Under the pieces are notes generated by a model. The model made no database searches, was not told the origin of the DNA, and was given only the letters and a program-made list of their open reading frames with translations. DNA of 64,000 nucleotides from Bacilli bacterium (GTDB lineage: Bacteria > Bacillota_I > Bacilli_A > ML615J-28 > CAG-313): contig JAZSNL010000020.1 of assembly GCA_045536365.1 (NCBI GenBank), positions 30,463 through 94,462 of the forward strand, read 5' to 3'. This document shows, piece after piece, positions 38,875 through 50,357 of the stretch (positions are counted from its first letter, which is position 1; each line of letters starts with the position of its first letter). Position numbers and translations under genes: made by a program.

Positions 38875-41800
38875 ATGAAGAAAATTTTTATTATAATATT
38901 AGTTATATCGCTAATATTAAACAGTATTCCGTTTGCACCACTAGGAAAATTACTAGCAGCGGAATCAAATTCAATTGAGGAAACAATAGTTTCAAATAAT
39001 ATGGAGGGTTCAGATGAAATTGAATATGAAATTGAATCATTAAGAGAACCTAATTTAAAAGTATTTAAAAGAAAAGATGGATTAATAGAATATAACTATT
39101 ATGAAGAAAATGTTCATTATTTAGAAGATGGTATATATAAAGAATATGATGTTTCTTTTAATGAATCAAATAGTTCGTATTCTAATACTGTAAATGGATA
39201 TGAAGTAGTGCTTCCCAAGAATTTAAAAAAGTCTAATATTATATTAAGACATCAAGAGGATGTTTTGAAAATAAAATATTTAAGTAATACTTCAAGTAAT
39301 TCCTCATCTAAAAAAATAAAAGAAGAAAAAGAAAATAAAAAAGATGTAATTACTACAAAGTCTAAAGTAGAATATAAAAATGTTTTAAAACATTCAATTA
39401 TTGAATTAATCCATACACCTACAGGATTAAAAGAAAATATTATATTAGAAAAGTATGTTAAAAATTATAGTTTTAGTTATATAATTGAAACTAGTTTAAA
39501 ATTAGTAAATGAAAATGATACTTTATATTTTTATAATGATTATGAAAAAGAAATATTTAGATTTAATCCTTATAATATTGTAGATAGTCAAAATAGGATA
39601 TCATATGATGTAGAGTTAAATATATCAATTACAGAAGAAGGTTACTTAGTAGATGTTATACCAAGTGATGAAGTATTAAAAGAATTTACTTATCCAATAA
39701 CAATTGATCCAGTAATTGAATATTCGAGTTCTACAATAGCCAGCAATATAAAAACTAAGTATTTCAGAAAAAATTTCAATGGAACAACACCAGGAATTAA
39801 AATAGAAAAATATGTTAATACTTTCCAAAATGCAGATGGTACATTTGGTAGTGAAGATATTTCTACTCTTACCATAATGGAGATAGATGAAGATATATTG
39901 GATGATAATCTTAATGTAGACACAATTAAATTTGCAAAATTAAAATTTAGGATTAAATCTTCAACACAGGATAATTCATATGATATAGCTGTAAATAGAA
40001 TAACGAGATTCTATGTTGGTGATGTGCCTTTTATTTCATATCCATATGATAATATAGATGGATACACAAATTATGAAACAAAGTCGATAGGAACTATGAA
40101 AAGAGTTGAAAACGCGTATGAACTCGATTTAACAAATGTAATCAAAGAAACAAAACATAACACAATGGTGTTAGAACTTACTGCAAAAAACATACCTAAT
40201 AATGAAGAAAATGTTATTTTATATGATTCTTCTTATACAGATAATAGTCAGAGACCTATGTTAACAATAGCATATATGGACAGCATGGGATTAATTGACT
40301 TTTTAACTTATCATACAGTAACATCAGGTAATACAACAGCTTACGTAAATGATTGTTTTGGTAATTTGGTCGTTGAACAAACTGATTATTTATCAAATTC
40401 AGAAAAAATATCATTTGATATAAGTCATTATTATAATATATCTTCTTCTACTACATCGGATTATGATGTAGGATATGGAAGAGGTATGACTTTAAGTTAC
40501 CTTGAAAGGGTTGTTCCAGAAACGTTAAATACTGAATATTATTCTGTTATTGAATCAACAGGTAGAAAAAAGTATTATAAAAAAGGAGCTATTACTCAAA
40601 ATGGATTTACCTATGTTAGTGAAGAGGGAGATGATGAATACTTAATAGTAAATTTAGCATCTTCAGTACCATATAAAAAAGTCATTCAAGAAAAATATGC
40701 GTATTGTTATGATAATGAAGGATATTTAGTAAAAATAATGGAACGCTTTACTCTGACTACTTTTATAGAGATCACTTATAAAACTACAACATATAGGGGT
40801 AATAAATTAATAGATGAAATAAAGGATTCTTCTAATAACTACGCAAAATTTATATATGAAAATAATCACTTATCAAAGATTCAAATATATAAAGCTACAT
40901 ACGAAGGAGAAAATGTTATAGGATATGAAATATCACAAACTAATAAATATGAATATGATAGTTCATTTAGAATGATAAAAACTTTATATTATAAAGGAAA
41001 TGAAGAAATTCTATTAGGTAAAGAAGAATATGAATACAATACAACAGATGATACATTATTAAAAATAGAGAGTTATAATTATAATGGAACTGAATATATT
41101 TTCATATCAAATATGGAGTTTTTATATTTAAATGAACAAGTAGTAGAATATTCTTCTCTTTTAGGTAGTAACAAAGAAAATGAAACTACTATGAAGATGT
41201 ATATTGAGTATGGAGATAGAACAACTACATTCACTAATAGCCTGGGACAAAGCACAAAATATTTATTTGATTATTTCGGACATACAAAAACAGTAATTGA
41301 TAATTATGGTAATACAACACATTATAAATATGCAAATTACAATAATGAACTATATAAGGATAATCCAAATTATGTTTTGAAACATCAAATTGAGGAAGTA
41401 TCAAGTCCTGTGAATTTAGGTTATAATTTAATTGATAATCATTCATTTGAAGAAGGAGAAAACCATTGGAATATATATTCTGGGGATATAGTGTATACTT
41501 CTGCATATGGATTAAAAGCATTGAAAGTAGATTTATCAAATAGTAATGAGAATACCGTTACAGCAAACCAAAAAATTAGTGTACAGACAAATAAAGTATA
41601 TACCCTTACCGCATTTATTAAAGGAAGCGGTGATATTTTGATAGTATCAGATAATGAAAATTATACTGTTTCCCAAAGCGAGTTGACTGAAACTACTGAT
41701 GATTATTTTTTATATAAAAAAACATTTAGTGTAAGCAGCATAGATCCAGATGAAGAATATGCAGAAGTGTATATTAATTTATGTACAAAAGAAACAGATC

Positions 41801-44800
41801 AATTTTCTGAACAAGTATACTTTGATCAAATAATGATAGATAAAAATAATATTGATACAATATACAATATGTTAATTAATCCATCGTTTGAAGAAAACAA
41901 TAGTTGGAGTGGAGGACAAAGGATATTAAGAACTTCTGACCAATCAATGTTTGGTAATTATGAAATGAAAGTGAGTGGTAACTCAATAGTTCATCAAGAA
42001 TTTGATGGTGTTCATATTCTAAAAGATACAACTATTACCATAGGTGGATTTGTAAGAACAAATGGAACAAGTGTACGTTTAAGAGTGCAATTTTTGAATT
42101 CAGAAACAGGATCAATGTCTAATTCATATGTAGTTCAATTTTACCCATATTTAACAGATTATCAATTTAATCTAAGTGAGTTTTCAGTAGAAGATGAATT
42201 TAGTACTGAATATTATGATGTCGTTTTCTTTGATATTATTAATACGGGAGAAATTGATTGTTATGTTGATAATTTAATATTAACATATGATTTATATGAA
42301 ATAAAATATGAATATAATGAACTTGGTTATCAAACTAAAAGCATATATGGTTCTTCAGTTACGTCAATAGAATATAAGAGTGATAATAGAACACCGGTAA
42401 AAATAACAAAAGATAATAAAGAATTATCATTAGATATACAAACATTCTCTACATCAATAGAATTTGATAATGTTAATATAACTGAAAATAAAAACTCATA
42501 TAATCAAGTAACATCTACTATAATAAATGATAAGCAAGTTAGTGAGACAGAATACGGTTATAATAATCAATATGTTACTTCACAAACAATTATCGGCAAT
42601 ATAGTAGAATATTCTTATGATTATTTATATGGTCTTTTGAACTCTGTTGAATATTCTGATGGTAATACCATTCAATATCAATATGATGATTACAATAGAT
42701 TATTACAAACAAGTTTCACTAAAGGAAAAATTAGTTATTTATATGATGATTATGGTAATATTGAAAAAATAGAAATACTAGGACAACTTGGCAATATATT
42801 AATGAGTTATTATTTTGAATATAATGAACATTTTGATATAGAAACTATATATGTAGGAAAAGATACAAATAAAGATAGAATCATTAAATATGAATATTTG
42901 TATTTAACATTATCAAATGGTAATGAAGTATATACTGGATTAATTAATAAAGTTATTAAAGGAAATAATGATGATAATTATGAAAGATACGAATACGATA
43001 AAGAATTTAATTTATATAAAACATATATTAAAAAGCCAAATATAGAAGAAACATTAATATCAGAGTTGTTATATGATAATTACAAGAATTTATCATTTTA
43101 TAAAGATTATGTTGATAACAAAATATATATGTATAATTATGATAAAGAGAATAGATTAATAAGTTGTCTTGATGAAAAAGGTAATGGTGTAAAATATCAA
43201 TATTTAACAATAGACAGTGACCAAAAAGAAAAAGTAATAGTTGAATATATTGTTGATAATACTGTTTTAACGACTATGACGTTTATATATAAAGAAGATG
43301 AATTAATAGAATATTTGACAAATGATATAAAGTCAAATCCTCAAGCAATTATTGACGATTATGATAGAGTGACTGAAAAACTATTAACCACAACGGATAA
43401 TAATGAATTGATAAAATATATTTATCAATACAATGAAGACAAAATCAGTCAATTAGATGGTTATGAAATAAAAATAGGTAATGATACATTAAAATATGGA
43501 TATTCATATGACATATATGGAAATATAATTCAAATAATAAAATATAAAAATAATGTAGAATTTGAAAAAATAGAATATCAATATAATAATAATCAAGAGC
43601 TATTACAAGAAAAAATTACAAGAAATAATGTAATAGTATTAGTAACAAATTATACATATAATACTATAGGTAACATAACATCAATAACAAGAACTACAAA
43701 ACAAGGAGAATATAGTAATTTACCATATAAAATCGAATTTATGTATGATACTAATGTTAGAATGAAATTATTATACTATAGAGTATATTTACATGGTTCT
43801 TTATCTTATACAACATACAACATTACATATGATGAATTTGGAAATATAAGACATGATGGTAAAAACTTGTTTATATATGATATAGATAAACTTATAAATA
43901 TTCAAAATGATAATAATAATATAATTTATGATTATAATAGTGATGGAGTACGCATCTATAAAAAAATAATAAATTTAGATGACACATATGAAGAAGTACA
44001 TTATGATGTATCAGGAGATATCATTTTAAAAGAAACAAGATATGATTCTTCAACAAACACAACAACATATATAATATATATTTATGATGAATCAGGAGTA
44101 GTAGGATTCAAAGTAGGAACAGATATAAATAACTTAACAACATACTATTTTGTAAAAAATCTCCAAAATGATATAATACAAATTATTGACACAAATGAAA
44201 ATGTTGTGGTAGAATATACTTATGATGCGTATGGCAATGTATTTGTATCAGGAACATTATCAAATACAATAGGAAAACTTAATCCATATAGATACAGAGG
44301 GTATTATTATGATGAGGAAACTCAGCTTTATTGGGTATCCTCAAGGTATTATTCACCAGAATTATGTAGATTTATAAGTCCTGATGATGTAGAATATCTA
44401 GATCCAGAATCATTAAATGGATTAAACTTATACTGCTATTGTGTGAACAATCCTATTATGTATATTGATCCTTATGGAAATGATGCAATTTTAATAACTG
44501 AATATTTACCAATGGGGTTACCTATTGTAGGTCACTCTGTTTTATTCGTTCAAGATGAAAATGGAGAATGGTGGATTACTGAATATTCAGGTTCTTTTCC
44601 TGATAAGAGTACTGCTCATGTTATTTGTAGAAAAGCTACACAGTCGGATTGGGAAAGATTTAAGCCGCAAAAAGGGTTTTGGAACTCTATTAAAAATCTG
44701 TTTCAAATTTCAGGGAATTCATCAGTTTATTTAAAAGGTGATTATTCTAACAGTTTAAGTAAAGCACAAAGCTTAAATGGTTTGGATTTTGGTGGATATC

Positions 44801-45006
44801 ACGCATTTACAAATAATTGCTTGCATTACGTTAAATCGATTTTAAGTGAAACAAATATTGATTCAGTTACGAATAATTATTTTAAGAATTCAAAAATTTT
44901 TATTCCATGCATGTTTACAAATATGACTACATTATGTAGTGTGATTGATGATGTAATTGATACTGGAAATAAAGTTTATAATTTTATAAAAGGTATTTTC
45001 AACTAA
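38875..45006 (+). CDS. Sec-secreted RHS/YD-repeat polymorphic toxin (WapA-like), 2043 aa, with variable C-terminal toxin domain
   Basis: N-terminal signal peptide; two CBM4/9-like beta-sandwich regions (~41.4-42.3 kb); many YD repeats (YEYDSSFRMIKT, YSYDYLYGLLNSVEYSDGNTIQYQYDDYNRL, YTYDAYGNV); RHS core end RYRGYYYDEETQLYWVSSRYYSPELCRFISPDDVEYLDPESLNGLNLYCYCVNNPIMYIDPYGN; ~175-aa C-terminal tip. Confidence 0.85.
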   Translation: MKKIFIIILVISLILNSIPFAPLGKLLAAESNSIEETIVSNNMEGSDEIEYEIESLREPNLKVFKRKDGLIEYNYYEENVHYLEDGIYKEYDVSFNESNSSYSNTVNGYEVVLPKNLKKSNIILRHQEDVLKIKYLSNTSSNSSSKKIKEEKENKKDVITTKSKVEYKNVLKHSIIELIHTPTGLKENIILEKYVKNYSFSYIIETSLKLVNENDTLYFYNDYEKEIFRFNPYNIVDSQNRISYDVELNISITEEGYLVDVIPSDEVLKEFTYPITIDPVIEYSSSTIASNIKTKYFRKNFNGTTPGIKIEKYVNTFQNADGTFGSEDISTLTIMEIDEDILDDNLNVDTIKFAKLKFRIKSSTQDNSYDIAVNRITRFYVGDVPFISYPYDNIDGYTNYETKSIGTMKRVENAYELDLTNVIKETKHNTMVLELTAKNIPNNEENVILYDSSYTDNSQRPMLTIAYMDSMGLIDFLTYHTVTSGNTTAYVNDCFGNLVVEQTDYLSNSEKISFDISHYYNISSSTTSDYDVGYGRGMTLSYLERVVPETLNTEYYSVIESTGRKKYYKKGAITQNGFTYVSEEGDDEYLIVNLASSVPYKKVIQEKYAYCYDNEGYLVKIMERFTLTTFIEITYKTTTYRGNKLIDEIKDSSNNYAKFIYENNHLSKIQIYKATYEGENVIGYEISQTNKYEYDSSFRMIKTLYYKGNEEILLGKEEYEYNTTDDTLLKIESYNYNGTEYIFISNMEFLYLNEQVVEYSSLLGSNKENETTMKMYIEYGDRTTTFTNSLGQSTKYLFDYFGHTKTVIDNYGNTTHYKYANYNNELYKDNPNYVLKHQIEEVSSPVNLGYNLIDNHSFEEGENHWNIYSGDIVYTSAYGLKALKVDLSNSNENTVTANQKISVQTNKVYTLTAFIKGSGDILIVSDNENYTVSQSELTETTDDYFLYKKTFSVSSIDPDEEYAEVYINLCTKETDQFSEQVYFDQIMIDKNNIDTIYNMLINPSFEENNSWSGGQRILRTSDQSMFGNYEMKVSGNSIVHQEFDGVHILKDTTITIGGFVRTNGTSVRLRVQFLNSETGSMSNSYVVQFYPYLTDYQFNLSEFSVEDEFSTEYYDVVFFDIINTGEIDCYVDNLILTYDLYEIKYEYNELGYQTKSIYGSSVTSIEYKSDNRTPVKITKDNKELSLDIQTFSTSIEFDNVNITENKNSYNQVTSTIINDKQVSETEYGYNNQYVTSQTIIGNIVEYSYDYLYGLLNSVEYSDGNTIQYQYDDYNRLLQTSFTKGKISYLYDDYGNIEKIEILGQLGNILMSYYFEYNEHFDIETIYVGKDTNKDRIIKYEYLYLTLSNGNEVYTGLINKVIKGNNDDNYERYEYDKEFNLYKTYIKKPNIEETLISELLYDNYKNLSFYKDYVDNKIYMYNYDKENRLISCLDEKGNGVKYQYLTIDSDQKEKVIVEYIVDNTVLTTMTFIYKEDELIEYLTNDIKSNPQAIIDDYDRVTEKLLTTTDNNELIKYIYQYNEDKISQLDGYEIKIGNDTLKYGYSYDIYGNIIQIIKYKNNVEFEKIEYQYNNNQELLQEKITRNNVIVLVTNYTYNTIGNITSITRTTKQGEYSNLPYKIEFMYDTNVRMKLLYYRVYLHGSLSYTTYNITYDEFGNIRHDGKNLFIYDIDKLINIQNDNNNIIYDYNSDGVRIYKKIINLDDTYEEVHYDVSGDIILKETRYDSSTNTTTYIIYIYDESGVVGFKVGTDINNLTTYYFVKNLQNDIIQIIDTNENVVVEYTYDAYGNVFVSGTLSNTIGKLNPYRYRGYYYDEETQLYWVSSRYYSPELCRFISPDDVEYLDPESLNGLNLYCYCVNNPIMYIDPYGNDAILITEYLPMGLPIVGHSVLFVQDENGEWWITEYSGSFPDKSTAHVICRKATQSDWERFKPQKGFWNSIKNLFQISGNSSVYLKGDYSNSLSKAQSLNGLDFGGYHAFTNNCLHYVKSILSETNIDSVTNNYFKNSKIFIPCMFTNMTTLCSVIDDVIDTGNKVYNFIKGIFN
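44236..44440 (+). repeat. RHS core-end repeat (copy in full-length gene)
   Basis: ~205 nt nearly identical to 47375..47580; weaker copies at 45822..45990, 48851..49012, 51962..52013. Confidence 0.7.
44479..45003 (+). other. C-terminal toxin tip: permuted papain-fold (NlpC/P60 superfamily, PPPDE/LRAT-like) candidate domain
   Basis: His-containing VGHSVLFVQDENGEWWITEYSGS followed ~100 aa later by YHAFTNNCLHYV (cf. NC[NE]HF of PPPDE/LRAT). Confidence 0.35.
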
Positions 45007-45028: not shown

Positions 45029-45676
45029 ATGAAAAAAATAATAAATAAATTGGGACTATTGATATTTTTATTTATTTTTATCGTTAGTGGATGTTCTATA
45101 AAAAGAAAAATAAAATTTGAAAATGAACAATTAATATATAAAGACACTTGTTATTCACTAGATGAAAATTATTTACCTATCGTTTGTGAAGGAGACATGA
45201 TTGAAATAGATAGAATTTTAGGAATATTTGGATTGCACAAATATTATATTAGTTCTTTAGATGTTGATAGCAATATTATTTATGACAATAAAAATCGATT
45301 TTACAAAGATGGCTTTCTACTTCCAAATGATAATAAAGATAATATTTCTAAAATATATATGACAATGAGTTTTAAAGGGAACTTTGATGATGAACTTCAA
45401 AAAACAGATGTTATACAATTTAATAATTCAGATTCAGTTTATTTAGATGACATAATTAATGAATGCCCAATAGATGAAGTTAAAATAGATAACAAATATA
45501 GTTTCTGGTTATTTATTATATATGAAAATTATTTATTTATGTCTATTCAATATGATATATACTATATGAACAATGAAATTTATTTTACAAAATATTATGA
45601 TAATGAACATTTATATAAAGTAAATGATAATTATAAAAAATATTTTGAAGAATCAATTATAAGAATATTGAAATAA
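45029..45676 (+). CDS. putative cognate immunity lipoprotein of the RHS toxin
   Basis: Immediately downstream (22 nt) of toxin stop, GAAGGAGG RBS; lipobox IVSGCS. Confidence 0.5.
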   Translation: MKKIINKLGLLIFLFIFIVSGCSIKRKIKFENEQLIYKDTCYSLDENYLPIVCEGDMIEIDRILGIFGLHKYYISSLDVDSNIIYDNKNRFYKDGFLLPNDNKDNISKIYMTMSFKGNFDDELQKTDVIQFNNSDSVYLDDIINECPIDEVKIDNKYSFWLFIIYENYLFMSIQYDIYYMNNEIYFTKYYDNEHLYKVNDNYKKYFEESIIRILK

Positions 45677-45813: not shown

Positions 45814-46392
45814 ATGATGTTGAAACTCAGCTTTTTTTGGGTATCCTCACGTTACTATTCGCCTGAATTATGTAGGTTTATAAGTCTTGATGATATTGAA
45901 TATTTAGATCCAGAATCAGTAAATGGATTGAACTTATGCAGCTATTGTGTGAACAACCCTGTTATGTATGTTGATAGTTCAGGAAATTTTCCTGTTATAG
46001 CATTTATTATAGGCGGAATTGCTGTAGGAGCGGTTGCTTCGGTTATTGTGGTTCTAGGAGTGAAAAATTGTACTTCTAAAAAAAATCCATTAAAAGAAAA
46101 TGATAAAATAAAAAATTCAGAAGGTAAAAAAAAGGATGATTTATTGGCGGATTTTTCTGATACAATTATGCCTGAATATAATCCAAAAGGTATGGCTAAT
46201 AATATTAATACCATTATAACGAATGATATAGTAAACTATCCAGCTAATTCATTGCCTATACAACCCTATGGAGCTGGAGGTTACGAAATCCCTAATGGTG
46301 ATTATAGTAGGTATAGCGGTGGAAGAGCTTTCTTTGATTCAACTTACGAAGAAGATTTATTTGATGTTATATTAAGTCTAAACATATGGTGA
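45814..46392 (+). CDS. orphan RHS C-terminal toxin cassette 1 (core-end remnant + alternative tip with TM helix)
   Basis: WVSSRYYSPELCRFISLDDIEYLDPESVNGLNLCSYCVNNPVMYVDSSGN is homologous at nt and aa level to 44331..44476; own ATG; 1-nt indel versus parental frame upstream. Confidence 0.6.
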   Translation: MMLKLSFFWVSSRYYSPELCRFISLDDIEYLDPESVNGLNLCSYCVNNPVMYVDSSGNFPVIAFIIGGIAVGAVASVIVVLGVKNCTSKKNPLKENDKIKNSEGKKKDDLLADFSDTIMPEYNPKGMANNINTIITNDIVNYPANSLPIQPYGAGGYEIPNGDYSRYSGGRAFFDSTYEEDLFDVILSLNIW

Positions 46393-46446
46393 TAAACATT
46401 CAAGTTTTCACTATGTTATAATTAGCCTATAGAAAAGGAGTAAAAT

Positions 46447-47337
46447 ATGAAAAAAAGATTCTTAATGATAATCATGATACTGTTAATAATATCATGTTCT
46501 GGATGTGAAAATAAGAAATTAGATTTAGAAACACTATATGAAAAAAATGCTAAAGTAGCAACAAGTTATTTTCCAGGATGGGGTGCAGATGATTATAAGT
46601 GCGAATTATTTATCTTCGAACCTGAAAATGCTACTGATTTTGAACTTGGACTTTGTTCTCCATATAATTTAGATGGTGTAGAAAAAGTTCTATATGTTAA
46701 GTATGAAAGAACTGATGAGATTCCATTTGTTGTTGCTTTACAATATAAATCAGTTAGACTTGCAAAAGAAGCCTATGAATTATATGGTTCGCAAAAATAT
46801 TTGCGAGAAGCAAATATTTTAGCACTTCCGATTACTCCTGCGTATATGTTTATATATGGACGCTATATAAAAGTTGATGGATATTATTTAAGTCCTGATG
46901 GTGAAGCTTTATTATATGATGGTCAAACACTAACAAGAACTGATATCGTCATACCAGAAGGTGTAAAATGTGTAGTAATGTGGAGTTTATTTTCAAAGAA
47001 AGTTAAAACTATTAAATGTAATGATGAGTTAGAGGTTTTATATTGTTGTTCGCTTGGTTATCTTGATGCACTAGAAAAAGTAGAATTAAATGATGGATTA
47101 AAAGAAATTGGCGGAGAGTGCTTTATCATGCATAATTTAGAATATATCGTTATTCCAAAAAGCGTTGAGTTAATTGGTGCTGAAGCATTTCAAAATGTAA
47201 CGATTTATTGTGAAATAGAGGAAAAACCTATAGGATGGCATAAAAATTTTGCAGGAGAAAATTGTAAAGTCTATTGGGGAGGAACATGGAAATATGTAGA
47301 TGGAATTCCTCGACCAAACAGATGGATAGAAAGATAA
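46447..47337 (+). CDS. lipoprotein with BspA-type leucine-rich repeats (LRR_5); putative immunity protein for cassette 1
   Basis: Lipobox ISCSGC; repeats LEKVELNDGLKEIGGECF / LEYIVIPKSVELIGAEAF. Confidence 0.5.
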   Translation: MKKRFLMIIMILLIISCSGCENKKLDLETLYEKNAKVATSYFPGWGADDYKCELFIFEPENATDFELGLCSPYNLDGVEKVLYVKYERTDEIPFVVALQYKSVRLAKEAYELYGSQKYLREANILALPITPAYMFIYGRYIKVDGYYLSPDGEALLYDGQTLTRTDIVIPEGVKCVVMWSLFSKKVKTIKCNDELEVLYCCSLGYLDALEKVELNDGLKEIGGECFIMHNLEYIVIPKSVELIGAEAFQNVTIYCEIEEKPIGWHKNFAGENCKVYWGGTWKYVDGIPRPNRWIER

Positions 47338-47374
47338 TAATTAAAATCGTAAAATAACTAATAAATATGTACAC

Positions 47375-47580
47375 AATGTATTTATATCAGGAACATTATC
47401 AAATACAATAGGAAAACTTAATCCATATAGATACAGAGGGTATTATTATGATGAGGAAACTCAGCTTTATTGGTTATCCTCAAGGTATTATTCACCAGAA
47501 TTATGTAGATTTATAAGTCCTGATGATGTAAGTTATCTTGATCCAGAAAGTATCAATGGATTGAACTTATATGTGTACTG
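47375..47580 (+). repeat. RHS core-end repeat (orphan cassette 2 copy)
   Basis: see 44236..44440. Confidence 0.7.
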
Positions 47581-48136
47581 TGGAAATGATCCCGTTAATA
47601 AGTATGATCCTAGCGGGCATAGTGCAATTTTAGCTAATTTAATTGCGAAGGGAATTTTAGCTATAGATACAATTGCAGAAACTGCTATATTGATGAATTC
47701 AGACAAATATAAAGCTGAGAATGTTTATCATGTTAATCCATCAACTGGTGAGGGAAATGTACATATTCCTAATTCTGCTGCATTTAATAACCCAATAGCT
47801 CAATTAATTTATTCTAATTATCTATATGAAAATGTAAAGAATAAAGATGGAAGCAATTTTTTTACAGGTGATCCTTATGATATTGTTGGTGAATGGCAAG
47901 CACATAATTTTGCGGCTAATTTAACAGGTTCATTAATGGTATTGAGTTTTATTCCTTTAGCATCATTATCAAATGGAGATTATTTTTGGTCAAAATTATA
48001 TAACGCACACAGTAGAAGTGTTCATACTGATATAGGTCCAAATATAGACTCTGAAAAAAGAGGAATAGTTAGAGTTGTATCAAAGATTTATAAATGGATT
48101 AATAAAATTAAAAGCTTTGATATTCTTAATTGGTAA
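47378..48136 (+). CDS. orphan RHS C-terminal toxin cassette 2 (no ATG; in-frame homology from 47378, ORF-track start 47561)
   Basis: VFISGTLSNTIGKLNPYRYRGYYYDEETQLYWLSSRYYSPELCRFISPDDVSYLDPESINGLNLYVYCGNDPVNKYDPSGH; nt 47375-47580 nearly identical to 44236-44440. Confidence 0.6.
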   Translation, partial: VFISGTLSNTIGKLNPYRYRGYYYDEETQLYWLSSRYYSPELCRFISPDDVSYLDPESINGLNLYVYCGNDPVNKYDPSGHSAILANLIAKGILAIDTIAETAILMNSDKYKAENVYHVNPSTGEGNVHIPNSAAFNNPIAQLIYSNYLYENVKNKDGSNFFTGDPYDIVGEWQAHNFAANLTGSLMVLSFIPLASLSNGDYFWSKLYNAHSRSVHTDIGPNIDSEKRGIVRVVSKIYKWINKIKSFDILNW

Positions 48137-48162
48137 TTGTATATTAAAGGAGTAGGGATCAT

Positions 48163-48702
48163 ATGAAAAAAATAAAGTTAATTGCATTATTAATTTTTTC
48201 TGGATTTATAGTTACATTGATATTCGGATTTTTAATCGATATTGATTACTCAAAAAACGTCATAAAAACAAGTGATAAATCGCTTTATGAGATGAATGAA
48301 TATTATTTTTTACCTAACTATAATGAATTTGAATATAAAGAAAATGTTACCGGGTTTTACACATATGATTCCTCTAATACACTTTCTGGAGGAAGTGTTT
48401 CTTATGTATTAGAATTACAATTTGCAACTAAAAAAGTCTATAATGAATTTTTAGAATATGAGTACACAAGATATGAATATGATAGTAATTCAATCATTTT
48501 AAAAAATAATTATGAATGTTATTTGTGTTTGAATGAAGATATTACTCAATATTATTATGGTGAATATATGCCGTATGCGTTAGGAATGTTATGTTTAAAT
48601 GAAAAAGATATAAAAATTAGATATGTATACTATGTTAATATAGAACATTCCATAGATAATAAATTTAATGATGTATTTCAAAATACAAATTGTACTTGGT
48701 GA
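48163..48702 (+). CDS. membrane-anchored/exported protein; putative immunity protein for cassette 2
   Basis: N-terminal TM/signal anchor; follows cassette 2 by 27 nt with AGGAG RBS. Confidence 0.45.
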   Translation: MKKIKLIALLIFSGFIVTLIFGFLIDIDYSKNVIKTSDKSLYEMNEYYFLPNYNEFEYKENVTGFYTYDSSNTLSGGSVSYVLELQFATKKVYNEFLEYEYTRYEYDSNSIILKNNYECYLCLNEDITQYYYGEYMPYALGMLCLNEKDIKIRYVYYVNIEHSIDNKFNDVFQNTNCTW

Positions 48703-48850
48703 ACGTATTGATTTTAGAAAGAGCATAGGGAGAATATTATTTTATAATATTTCTCCGAGTGCTTAATTATGTAAATTGGATACCAATTTCATTACTAACA
48801 TATTATAATTAGGATATAGTTATTATGAGGATACTCGTAATAGCCCTGTT

Positions 48851-49498
48851 GAAACTCAGTTATTCTATTGCAACTCTAGATATTATTCACCTGAACTTTG
48901 TAGGTTCATAAGTCCAGATAGTATTGAGTATTTAGATCCTGAAAGTATCAATGGATTGAACTTATATGCGTACTGTGGAAATGATCCCGTTAATAAGTAT
49001 GATCCTACAGGTCACATCGCGATTAGTACAATTATTGGAATAATTCTTGGTATAGGTGCTTTGGCGGCAACCGCTAATGATATTTATCAAATTGCAAGTG
49101 GAAATGTGTATGTAGATATGAATAAAACAGATAATGAAAATGTTCATATTGAAAATTCCTATAAAATACTAACCCCTTGGATGAGATATGGTTATAGTTT
49201 CTATTTGAATCATTTTAATCCTAATACTAAAGATGTTATTCAGGGAAGTACAGCAGGAGTTCAATTTGAATGGGAATTGCATAATTATGCTGCTTGGCTG
49301 GGTTTTGGTGGAGAGCCAGCTAAACATCTTGATGTTGGAAAAACTATATTTGCGGATGGGGAAGCTCATCCATTAAGGGATAAAGATGGTGATATCACAA
49401 AAGAAGGTGTGATGTCACTAGGAATGAGGATAGGTTATATTTTATCAGGTAACCCTATATATTGGATTCCGGATTTAATTATAAATGGAGGATTTTAA
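48851..49498 (+). CDS. orphan RHS C-terminal toxin cassette 3 (no ATG; frame open from 48809, ORF-track start 48956)
   Basis: ETQLFYCNSRYYSPELCRFISPDSIEYLDPESINGLNLYAYCGNDPVNKYDPTGH then unique ~160-aa tip; 48956-49012 almost identical to 47556-47612. Confidence 0.6.
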   Translation, partial: ETQLFYCNSRYYSPELCRFISPDSIEYLDPESINGLNLYAYCGNDPVNKYDPTGHIAISTIIGIILGIGALAATANDIYQIASGNVYVDMNKTDNENVHIENSYKILTPWMRYGYSFYLNHFNPNTKDVIQGSTAGVQFEWELHNYAAWLGFGGEPAKHLDVGKTIFADGEAHPLRDKDGDITKEGVMSLGMRIGYILSGNPIYWIPDLIINGGF

Positions 49499-49625
49499 AA
49501 TGAAAAAGATATGCGTATTACTTTTAACAATATTAACTTTGCTTTTAACTTCCTGTGGAGAAGACACAACACGATTAGCAAAAGATGAATTTTCGAAATA
49601 TTATAATGGAAGAAATGAAGTTGTT
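49412..49625 (+). repeat. toxin-3 tail/imm-3 start repeat; second copy at 50893..51100
   Basis: ~85-90 % identical over ~210 nt including RBS and lipoprotein signal peptide coding. Confidence 0.65.
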
Positions 49626-50357
49626 TTAAATTATTTAGATAATCTTTACTTTGAAAATTATATCCTTAGTTTAAGTGATTTGATAGAAAAGAGTGAATTT
49701 AATAATGGTTTGATTATAAAACAAGATAAATTCTTTTTTTCAACCTCTACAGAAAATTCAATGTATGATTTCACTTTAAATATTTATGAGGCAAATTTAC
49801 AAGGCACGAATGTAAAAATGATTTTTTCCAAAGATGGGTATAAAACTCATCCTTGGGTCTATGCTATTGATGAAATGTTTTATGTGGAATTTTATTCAAA
49901 TAATGCTTTTGATTTAAAAAGTAAATTAATTGATAAATATACAATATCTACAAGAATTTATGAGAATGTTGCTAGTGGAGAGGATTGTTCTTTATCTGAC
50001 TATTTTCAAAGTGACTCTCAAAGTAGATACAGTATTGAAGTAGTAGAAAACATATCTCCTCAAGAACATGGTGAATTTATTATTACTGACTTAGAAAATG
50101 GAATAACTAATATTATAGATGATGATTACTTAAAAGATACGATTTATATTGAGTCTATGGAAAAATTTAATTATAGTCCAATGAGATTTGATATATCAAA
50201 TGACAAGATTTTATTAACATATGGAATAGGTGCAGGAGATGGATGGAATAATGCGCATTTGATATTTGAATATGATTTTAATTCGAATAAATTAAAATAT
50301 CAATTACTTGCATTTCCAGATGATTTGATGAATGTAAAAATTATATACATTGGTTAA
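49499..50357 (+). CDS. lipoprotein; putative immunity protein for cassette 3
   Basis: ATG 49499 6 nt after GGAGGA lying in the toxin's last codons; lipobox LLTSCG. Confidence 0.5.

Follow-up and report, generated by a model that had tools for sequence, protein, structure and literature searches.

[quoted passage not shown] The explanation that best accounts for the whole, to which we give a probability of about 0.55, is that of a Sec-exported RHS toxin whose tip would act as a thiol acyl-hydrolase, or phospholipase A, on envelope lipids and whose immunity protein would be a lipoprotein. This reading starts from the fold, the conservation of the catalytic residues, the position of the domain as an RHS tip and its conserved linkage to exported partner genes (table 1).

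Table 1. Features of the RHS locus, in coordinates of the window
Feature	Coordinates	Strand	Basis
RHS/WapA-type polymorphic toxin gene, 2043 aa	38875..45006	+	ORF list and translation; YD-rich repeats visible in sequence
Sec-type signal peptide, MKKIFIIILVISLILNSIPFAPLGKLLAA/E (predicted)	38875..38961	+	Read from translation
RHS repeat-associated core end (…RYYSPELCRFISPDD…NNPIMYIDPYG), putative boundary for tip release	44221..44478	+	TIGR03696
Toxin tip (175 aa), thiol hydrolase domain of the permuted NlpC/P60 (papain-like) type	44479..45003	+	Translation, homologue search, model, fold and profile matches
His19 codon (aa 1887), predicted general base	44533..44535	+	Invariant, 108/108; aligns to TseH His
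Glu35 codon, predicted third (His-orienting) residue	44581..44583	+	E 90, Q 13, H 3, D 2 of 108
Tyr107 codon, predicted oxyanion/P1-carbonyl tyrosine	44797..44799	+	Y in 107/108
Cys114 codon (aa 1982), predicted nucleophile	44818..44820	+	Invariant, 108/108
Long amphipathic C-terminal helix, tip aa 143-175	44905..45003	+	Helix 143-174 in model
Candidate immunity lipoprotein, 215 aa, lipobox VSG/C	45029..45676	+	Translation; homologs beside toxin homologs or remnants
Array of RHS C-terminal orphan cassettes (three), each with the gene of an exported partner 3' of it	45814..50357	+	Translations
Orphan cassette 1 / partner 1	45814-46392 / 46447-47337	+	Keeps RHS core end (RYYSPELCRFIS…VDSSGN)
Orphan cassette 2 / partner 2	47561-48136 / 48163-48702	+	Translations
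Orphan cassette 3 / partner 3	48956-49498 / 49485-50357	+	Translations

Position and Extent of the Tip Family

The signal peptide of the host protein is predicted to be cleaved between MKKIFIIILVISLILNSIPFAPLGKLLAA and E, on the basis of its n-h-c pattern and AxA motif. An NCBIfam scan of the RHS protein returned Rhs_assc_core (TIGR03696) at aa 1783-1868 (70.6 bits, E 1.2e-19, cutoff 32.5), and the assignment of the RHS core relies on this model since Pfam gave no match to the whole protein at E<=0.01, RHS_repeat appearing at sub-threshold level only in this AT-rich protein. The silence of Pfam is probably due to the extreme AT-driven composition. The GC content of the source organism is very low (about 26%). 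The tip begins directly after the …NNPIMYIDPYG of the core (…IDPYG/NDAIL…), in the arrangement of RHS polymorphic toxins, where the core domain stands immediately 5' of a variable C-terminal tip, and in the translation the catalytic domain follows the core end with no additional entry domain intervening. Autoproteolytic tip release is established for RHS/Tc proteins, and by analogy the tip may be released at this core boundary. Genes for a wall anchor, a SecF-like protein or a sortase were not seen adjoining the RHS gene, and an Rfam scan of the window returned no RNA family.

With an adjacent candidate immunity gene and orphan tip/partner cassettes, the locus is organized as expected for RHS toxins. 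It shares with WapA-type toxins (B. subtilis WapA; S. suis WapA, PMC12704120) the Sec signal peptide, the RHS/YD shell, the variable C-terminal toxin, the adjacent immunity gene (here a candidate) and the orphan cassettes. In the classical WapA proteins, however, the tip is a tRNase and immunity is cytoplasmic, whereas here the tip is a predicted thiol hydrolase and the candidate immunity protein a lipoprotein. Some S. suis WapA tips are toxic only when exported (PMC12704120).

An exhaustive phmmer search of representative sequences retrieved 156 relatives of the tip at E<=1e-3 and 69 at E<=1e-10, the 156 being clusters at 50% identity. Nearly all of them are C-terminal tips lying directly after an RHS core end, which, together with the orphan tip/partner cassettes of the locus, supports a role as toxin. 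The exhaustive search was needed to reveal the family, since a word-indexed homolog search yielded no more than 3 relatives from the tip sequence alone and 10 from a profile. The family is drawn almost entirely from metagenome assemblies. A locus search with a tighter alignment found a single locus in species-representative genomes (in a Clostridia MAG) and seven in metagenomes. Scanning representative genomes for the pattern TNNCLHYV did not recover the window's own genome, and searching plasmids and phages with the tip by tblastn returned nothing relevant.

Catalytic Residues and Predicted Structure

The tip translates exactly to the peptide quoted in an earlier, sequence-only reading of this DNA, which had noticed a His motif ahead of an NC-type Cys box. 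This order holds: VGHSVLFVQDENGEWWITEYSGS contains His19, within VGH, and YHAFTNNCLHYV contains Cys114, within NNCLHY, 95 residues later. In a domain alignment of 108 sequences, G18, H19, W31 and C114 are invariant, and N112 and N113 are each kept in 103; as judged from this alignment, the His and Cys motifs are conserved and not due to chance. The His of the proposed NC.H[FY] box is less constant: this residue (H116) is kept in only 68 of the 108 sequences, and the family box reads NNC[LSAM][HDT]Y; the His of YHAF is likewise not conserved in the family.

[quoted passage not shown] The tip has its equivalent in the putative catalytic set His19–Glu35–Tyr107–Cys114, with spacings that match those of YiiX, BcPPNE, PPPDE1 and LRAT: His19 and Glu35 are 16 residues apart, the corresponding spacing being 15 in YiiX and BcPPNE, and Tyr107 precedes Cys114 by 7 residues, as does the Tyr in PPPDE1 (Y101/C108) and LRAT (Y154/C161) (PMC3142127). 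In the model of the tip, used for its secondary structure and fold matches, His19 opens strand 19-25, Glu35 sits on the neighboring strand 31-37 and Cys114 forms the N-terminus of helix 114-122. The domain thus shows the permuted order, a catalytic His on a beta-strand and then a catalytic Cys at a helix N-terminus, and not the Cys-before-His order of canonical NlpC/P60 enzymes. The C-terminal helix has a hydrophobic moment of 0.57 over 18 residues, a value reached by 3 of 2000 shuffles; that it binds membranes is speculative, and we hold its amphipathic character to be weak evidence of this, as the helix may simply pack on the core.

Some polymorphic toxins use papain-like domains as their releasing peptidases (PMC3482391), and the domain could in principle be such a processing peptidase, or else an inactive remnant, instead of the toxic part. 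We find this highly improbable: no other domain follows the RHS core, the tip is accompanied by a partner gene of its own, also where it occurs as orphan remnants, RHS proteins have their own aspartyl autoprotease, and the catalytic residues are invariant across 108 sequences.

Relationship to Known Permuted Families

The tip is structurally similar to the TseH crystal structure, and its strong structural neighbors are all permuted enzymes, most of the characterized ones handling fatty-acyl groups. The family profile matched 6v98 (TseH) at E 0.32 (hhalign 83%), and both HMMER and hhalign pair the His and Cys of the tip with the TseH His and NC-box Cys, in agreement with their predicted catalytic role. 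Identity to TseH is about 16-19%, and the tip itself has no match to PF25218 at E<=10 (cutoff 27 bits). No Pfam model reached threshold for the tip, and a direct scan of Pfam and NCBIfam returned only a sub-threshold LRAT match confined to the Cys box (PF04970; 13.8 bits, E 0.071, gathering cutoff 24.3 bits), with no match to Peptidase_C97/PPPDE (PF05903, cutoff 29.2 bits; relative P0003 reaches 15.2 bits); phmmer against PDB sequences gave nothing useful. When 50 family members were scanned individually against Pfam, weak matches were obtained for LRAT (31/50), Peptidase_C97 (18/50), RTE1 (15/50), TseH (13/50, best E 6.5e-6) and Lnb_N (3/50). All of these are permuted families, and among the 25 most-matched families listed there is no canonical NLPC_P60, CHAP or Tae-type model, which supports the fold class.

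The permuted papain fold suggested from sequence alone is thereby borne out by the TseH structural match, the permuted-family matches among relatives and the His-before-Cys order, while the likeness to PPPDE or LRAT was right as to the superfamily but not as to the closest relative. Although Cys114 aligns to the Cys of the PLA2G16 NCEHF box, the tip departs from the His–His–Cys triad and NCEHF box of LRAT and PLAAT enzymes (H-rev107, PLA2G16), its third residue being Glu/Gln where PLAATs have a second His. It also lacks their C-terminal transmembrane anchor, and its family is bacterial and toxin-borne whereas LRAT/PLAAT are eukaryotic or viral. The structural match to PPPDE/DeSI and CLN5 is weaker than that to TseH, and PPPDE enzymes are eukaryotic isopeptidases or depalmitoylases.

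Permuted NlpC/P60 toxins, namely Tox-Act1 and TseH, were described by Nicastro et al. (2026, PLoS Biol, PMC12994826), who list RHS fusions among the Tox-Act1 homologs of Bacillota, Bacteroidota and E. coli (the last an RHS+DUF4105 protein). The view taken in the sequence-only reading, that this domain was undescribed among RHS tips, is therefore outdated: the tip belongs to a recently described kind of toxin, and what is new is a further family lacking a Pfam model. Compared by description only, Tox-Act1 has in common with the tip family a permuted NlpC/P60 polymorphic-toxin domain; its His and Cys are essential, it acts in the periplasm and its immunity protein is membrane-associated (PMC12994826). 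However, Tox-Act1 relatives tend to match Pfam DUF4105/Lnb_N, a match found in 3 of 50 members of the present family and not in the tip. As for TseH, this T6SS cargo of a Gram-negative bacterium stands alone, whereas the tip is the C-terminus of a Sec-exported RHS protein from a low-GC, monoderm-type organism.

Partner Genes and Site of Action

The lipoprotein gene starts with an ATG 22 nt 3' of the RHS stop codon, and its product carries the signal MKKIINKLGLLIFLFIFIVSG just before the lipobox Cys. In a further difference from TseH, this candidate has no detectable similarity to any known family, neither Pfam nor NCBIfam returning one, and its AF2 model (pLDDT 52.8) is too poor for a binding test. 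Its homologs adjoin toxin homologs or toxin remnants in three loci (L002, L014 and L019), and the gene context makes it probably the antidote of the tip. In 12 of 13 related loci, whose toxins range down to about 30% identity, the toxin gene is followed directly by one for a lipoprotein or a signal-anchored protein, with no cytoplasmic candidate between toxin and partner. Partners of different loci show little similarity beyond the signal peptide in pairwise BLAST, and small-database phmmer comparisons suggest at least two partner types, lipoprotein and signal-anchor. The partners of the orphan cassettes also carry lipoboxes or an N-terminal transmembrane segment (with an LRR_5 match on that of the first cassette), making all four partner genes at the locus genes for exported proteins.

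Action outside the cytoplasmic membrane, which the sequence-only reading had proposed along with lipoprotein immunity, is supported by the exported or anchored partner in 12 of 13 loci, by the lack of an extra entry domain after the core end and by relative P0012, where a PG_binding_1 domain lies just 5' of the toxin domain, within the released fragment. The effectors to which RHS scaffolds are fused usually act in the cytoplasm (PMC12994826), and the tip might accordingly be imagined to act in the target cytoplasm, the downstream lipoprotein being unrelated to immunity; the partner linkage, the four exported partners out of four and the lack of a translocation domain leave this little credit.

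A Lipid or a Wall Substrate

We would picture the action of the toxin, from its release through its site and lipid substrate to immunity, as follows. Sec would export the WapA-like RHS toxin of a walled low-GC bacterium, and the RHS shell would free the tip at the …DPYG/N boundary; the tip would then act on the target cell either in its wall or at the external surface of its cytoplasmic membrane, with Cys114 attacking a membrane lipid at a fatty-acyl ester (phospholipase A-type chemistry). The resulting acyl-thioester would be hydrolyzed or transferred, with membrane damage as the outcome, and the lipoprotein would block the toxin at the producer's own membrane, on whose outer side it would sit.

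The fold also includes the PPPDE isopeptidases, which we count against a lipid substrate, along with the lack of TseH activity on natural PG/PE by mass spectrometry (PMC12994826). On the other hand, Tox-Act1 cleaves PG and PE and its H43A and C151A mutants lose toxicity, TseH has phospholipase activity on liposomes (PMC12994826), YiiX binds fatty acid and permuted members have hydrophobic, not hydrophilic, S1 pockets (PMC3142127); it is this lipid activity, bound fatty acid and pocket character that lead us to favor lipids.

The main rival is peptidoglycan cleavage, in which the Cys–His pair would cut an amide of the stem peptide or cross-link, like classical NlpC/P60 and Tae enzymes, and the lipoprotein would inhibit within the wall compartment. 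The superfamily includes peptidoglycan endopeptidases, TseH was first put forward as a peptidoglycan-degrading effector (summarized in PMC12994826), and an exported immunity protein fits equally well; such a target stays plausible given the PG_binding_1 domain of P0012 and a MurC-like gene in the organism, from which we take it to have a cell wall. We nevertheless think it the less likely target, as the Pfam scan of 50 members placed no NLPC_P60, CHAP or Tae-type family among the 25 most-matched listed, and as the permuted, mostly acyl-handling neighbors, the hydrophobic pockets and the liposome activity of TseH speak against it. More doubtful still is that the tip modifies proteins or lipoproteins instead of bulk lipids, whether by stripping or transferring lipoprotein acyl groups (Lnb-like, depalmitoylase-like), by protein fatty-acylation (RID-like) or by isopeptide cleavage (PPPDE-like): these matches are weaker than those to TseH and PLAAT, and the substrates of RID and PPPDE are eukaryotic and cytosolic.

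Implications

RHS proteins are best known as carriers of nucleases and of other toxins that work in the cytoplasm. The array described here looks surface-acting as a whole, since the main tip is of thiol acyl-hydrolase type and all partner genes encode exported proteins; if so, this would be a way for a Sec-exported RHS protein to kill neighbors without crossing their membrane. Going further, we tentatively raise the possibility, which we do not consider the likelier case, that the family is a distinct permuted NlpC/P60 clade outside Pfam coverage and directed at monoderm targets, with Sec-exported RHS delivery in place of an injection machine and neutralization by surface lipoproteins. Its substrate could then be an envelope lipid specific to such cells, not PG/PE, for instance the lipoteichoic acid glycolipid anchor, lysyl-phosphatidylglycerol or the lipoprotein diacylglyceryl group. 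As no Pfam model exists, the tips of this family are currently annotated as hypothetical, and a profile built from the family alignment would label them. The family also offers a Gram-positive counterpart in which to test the proposal, made for TseH and Tox-Act1, that permuted NlpC/P60 toxins target lipid and not peptidoglycan.

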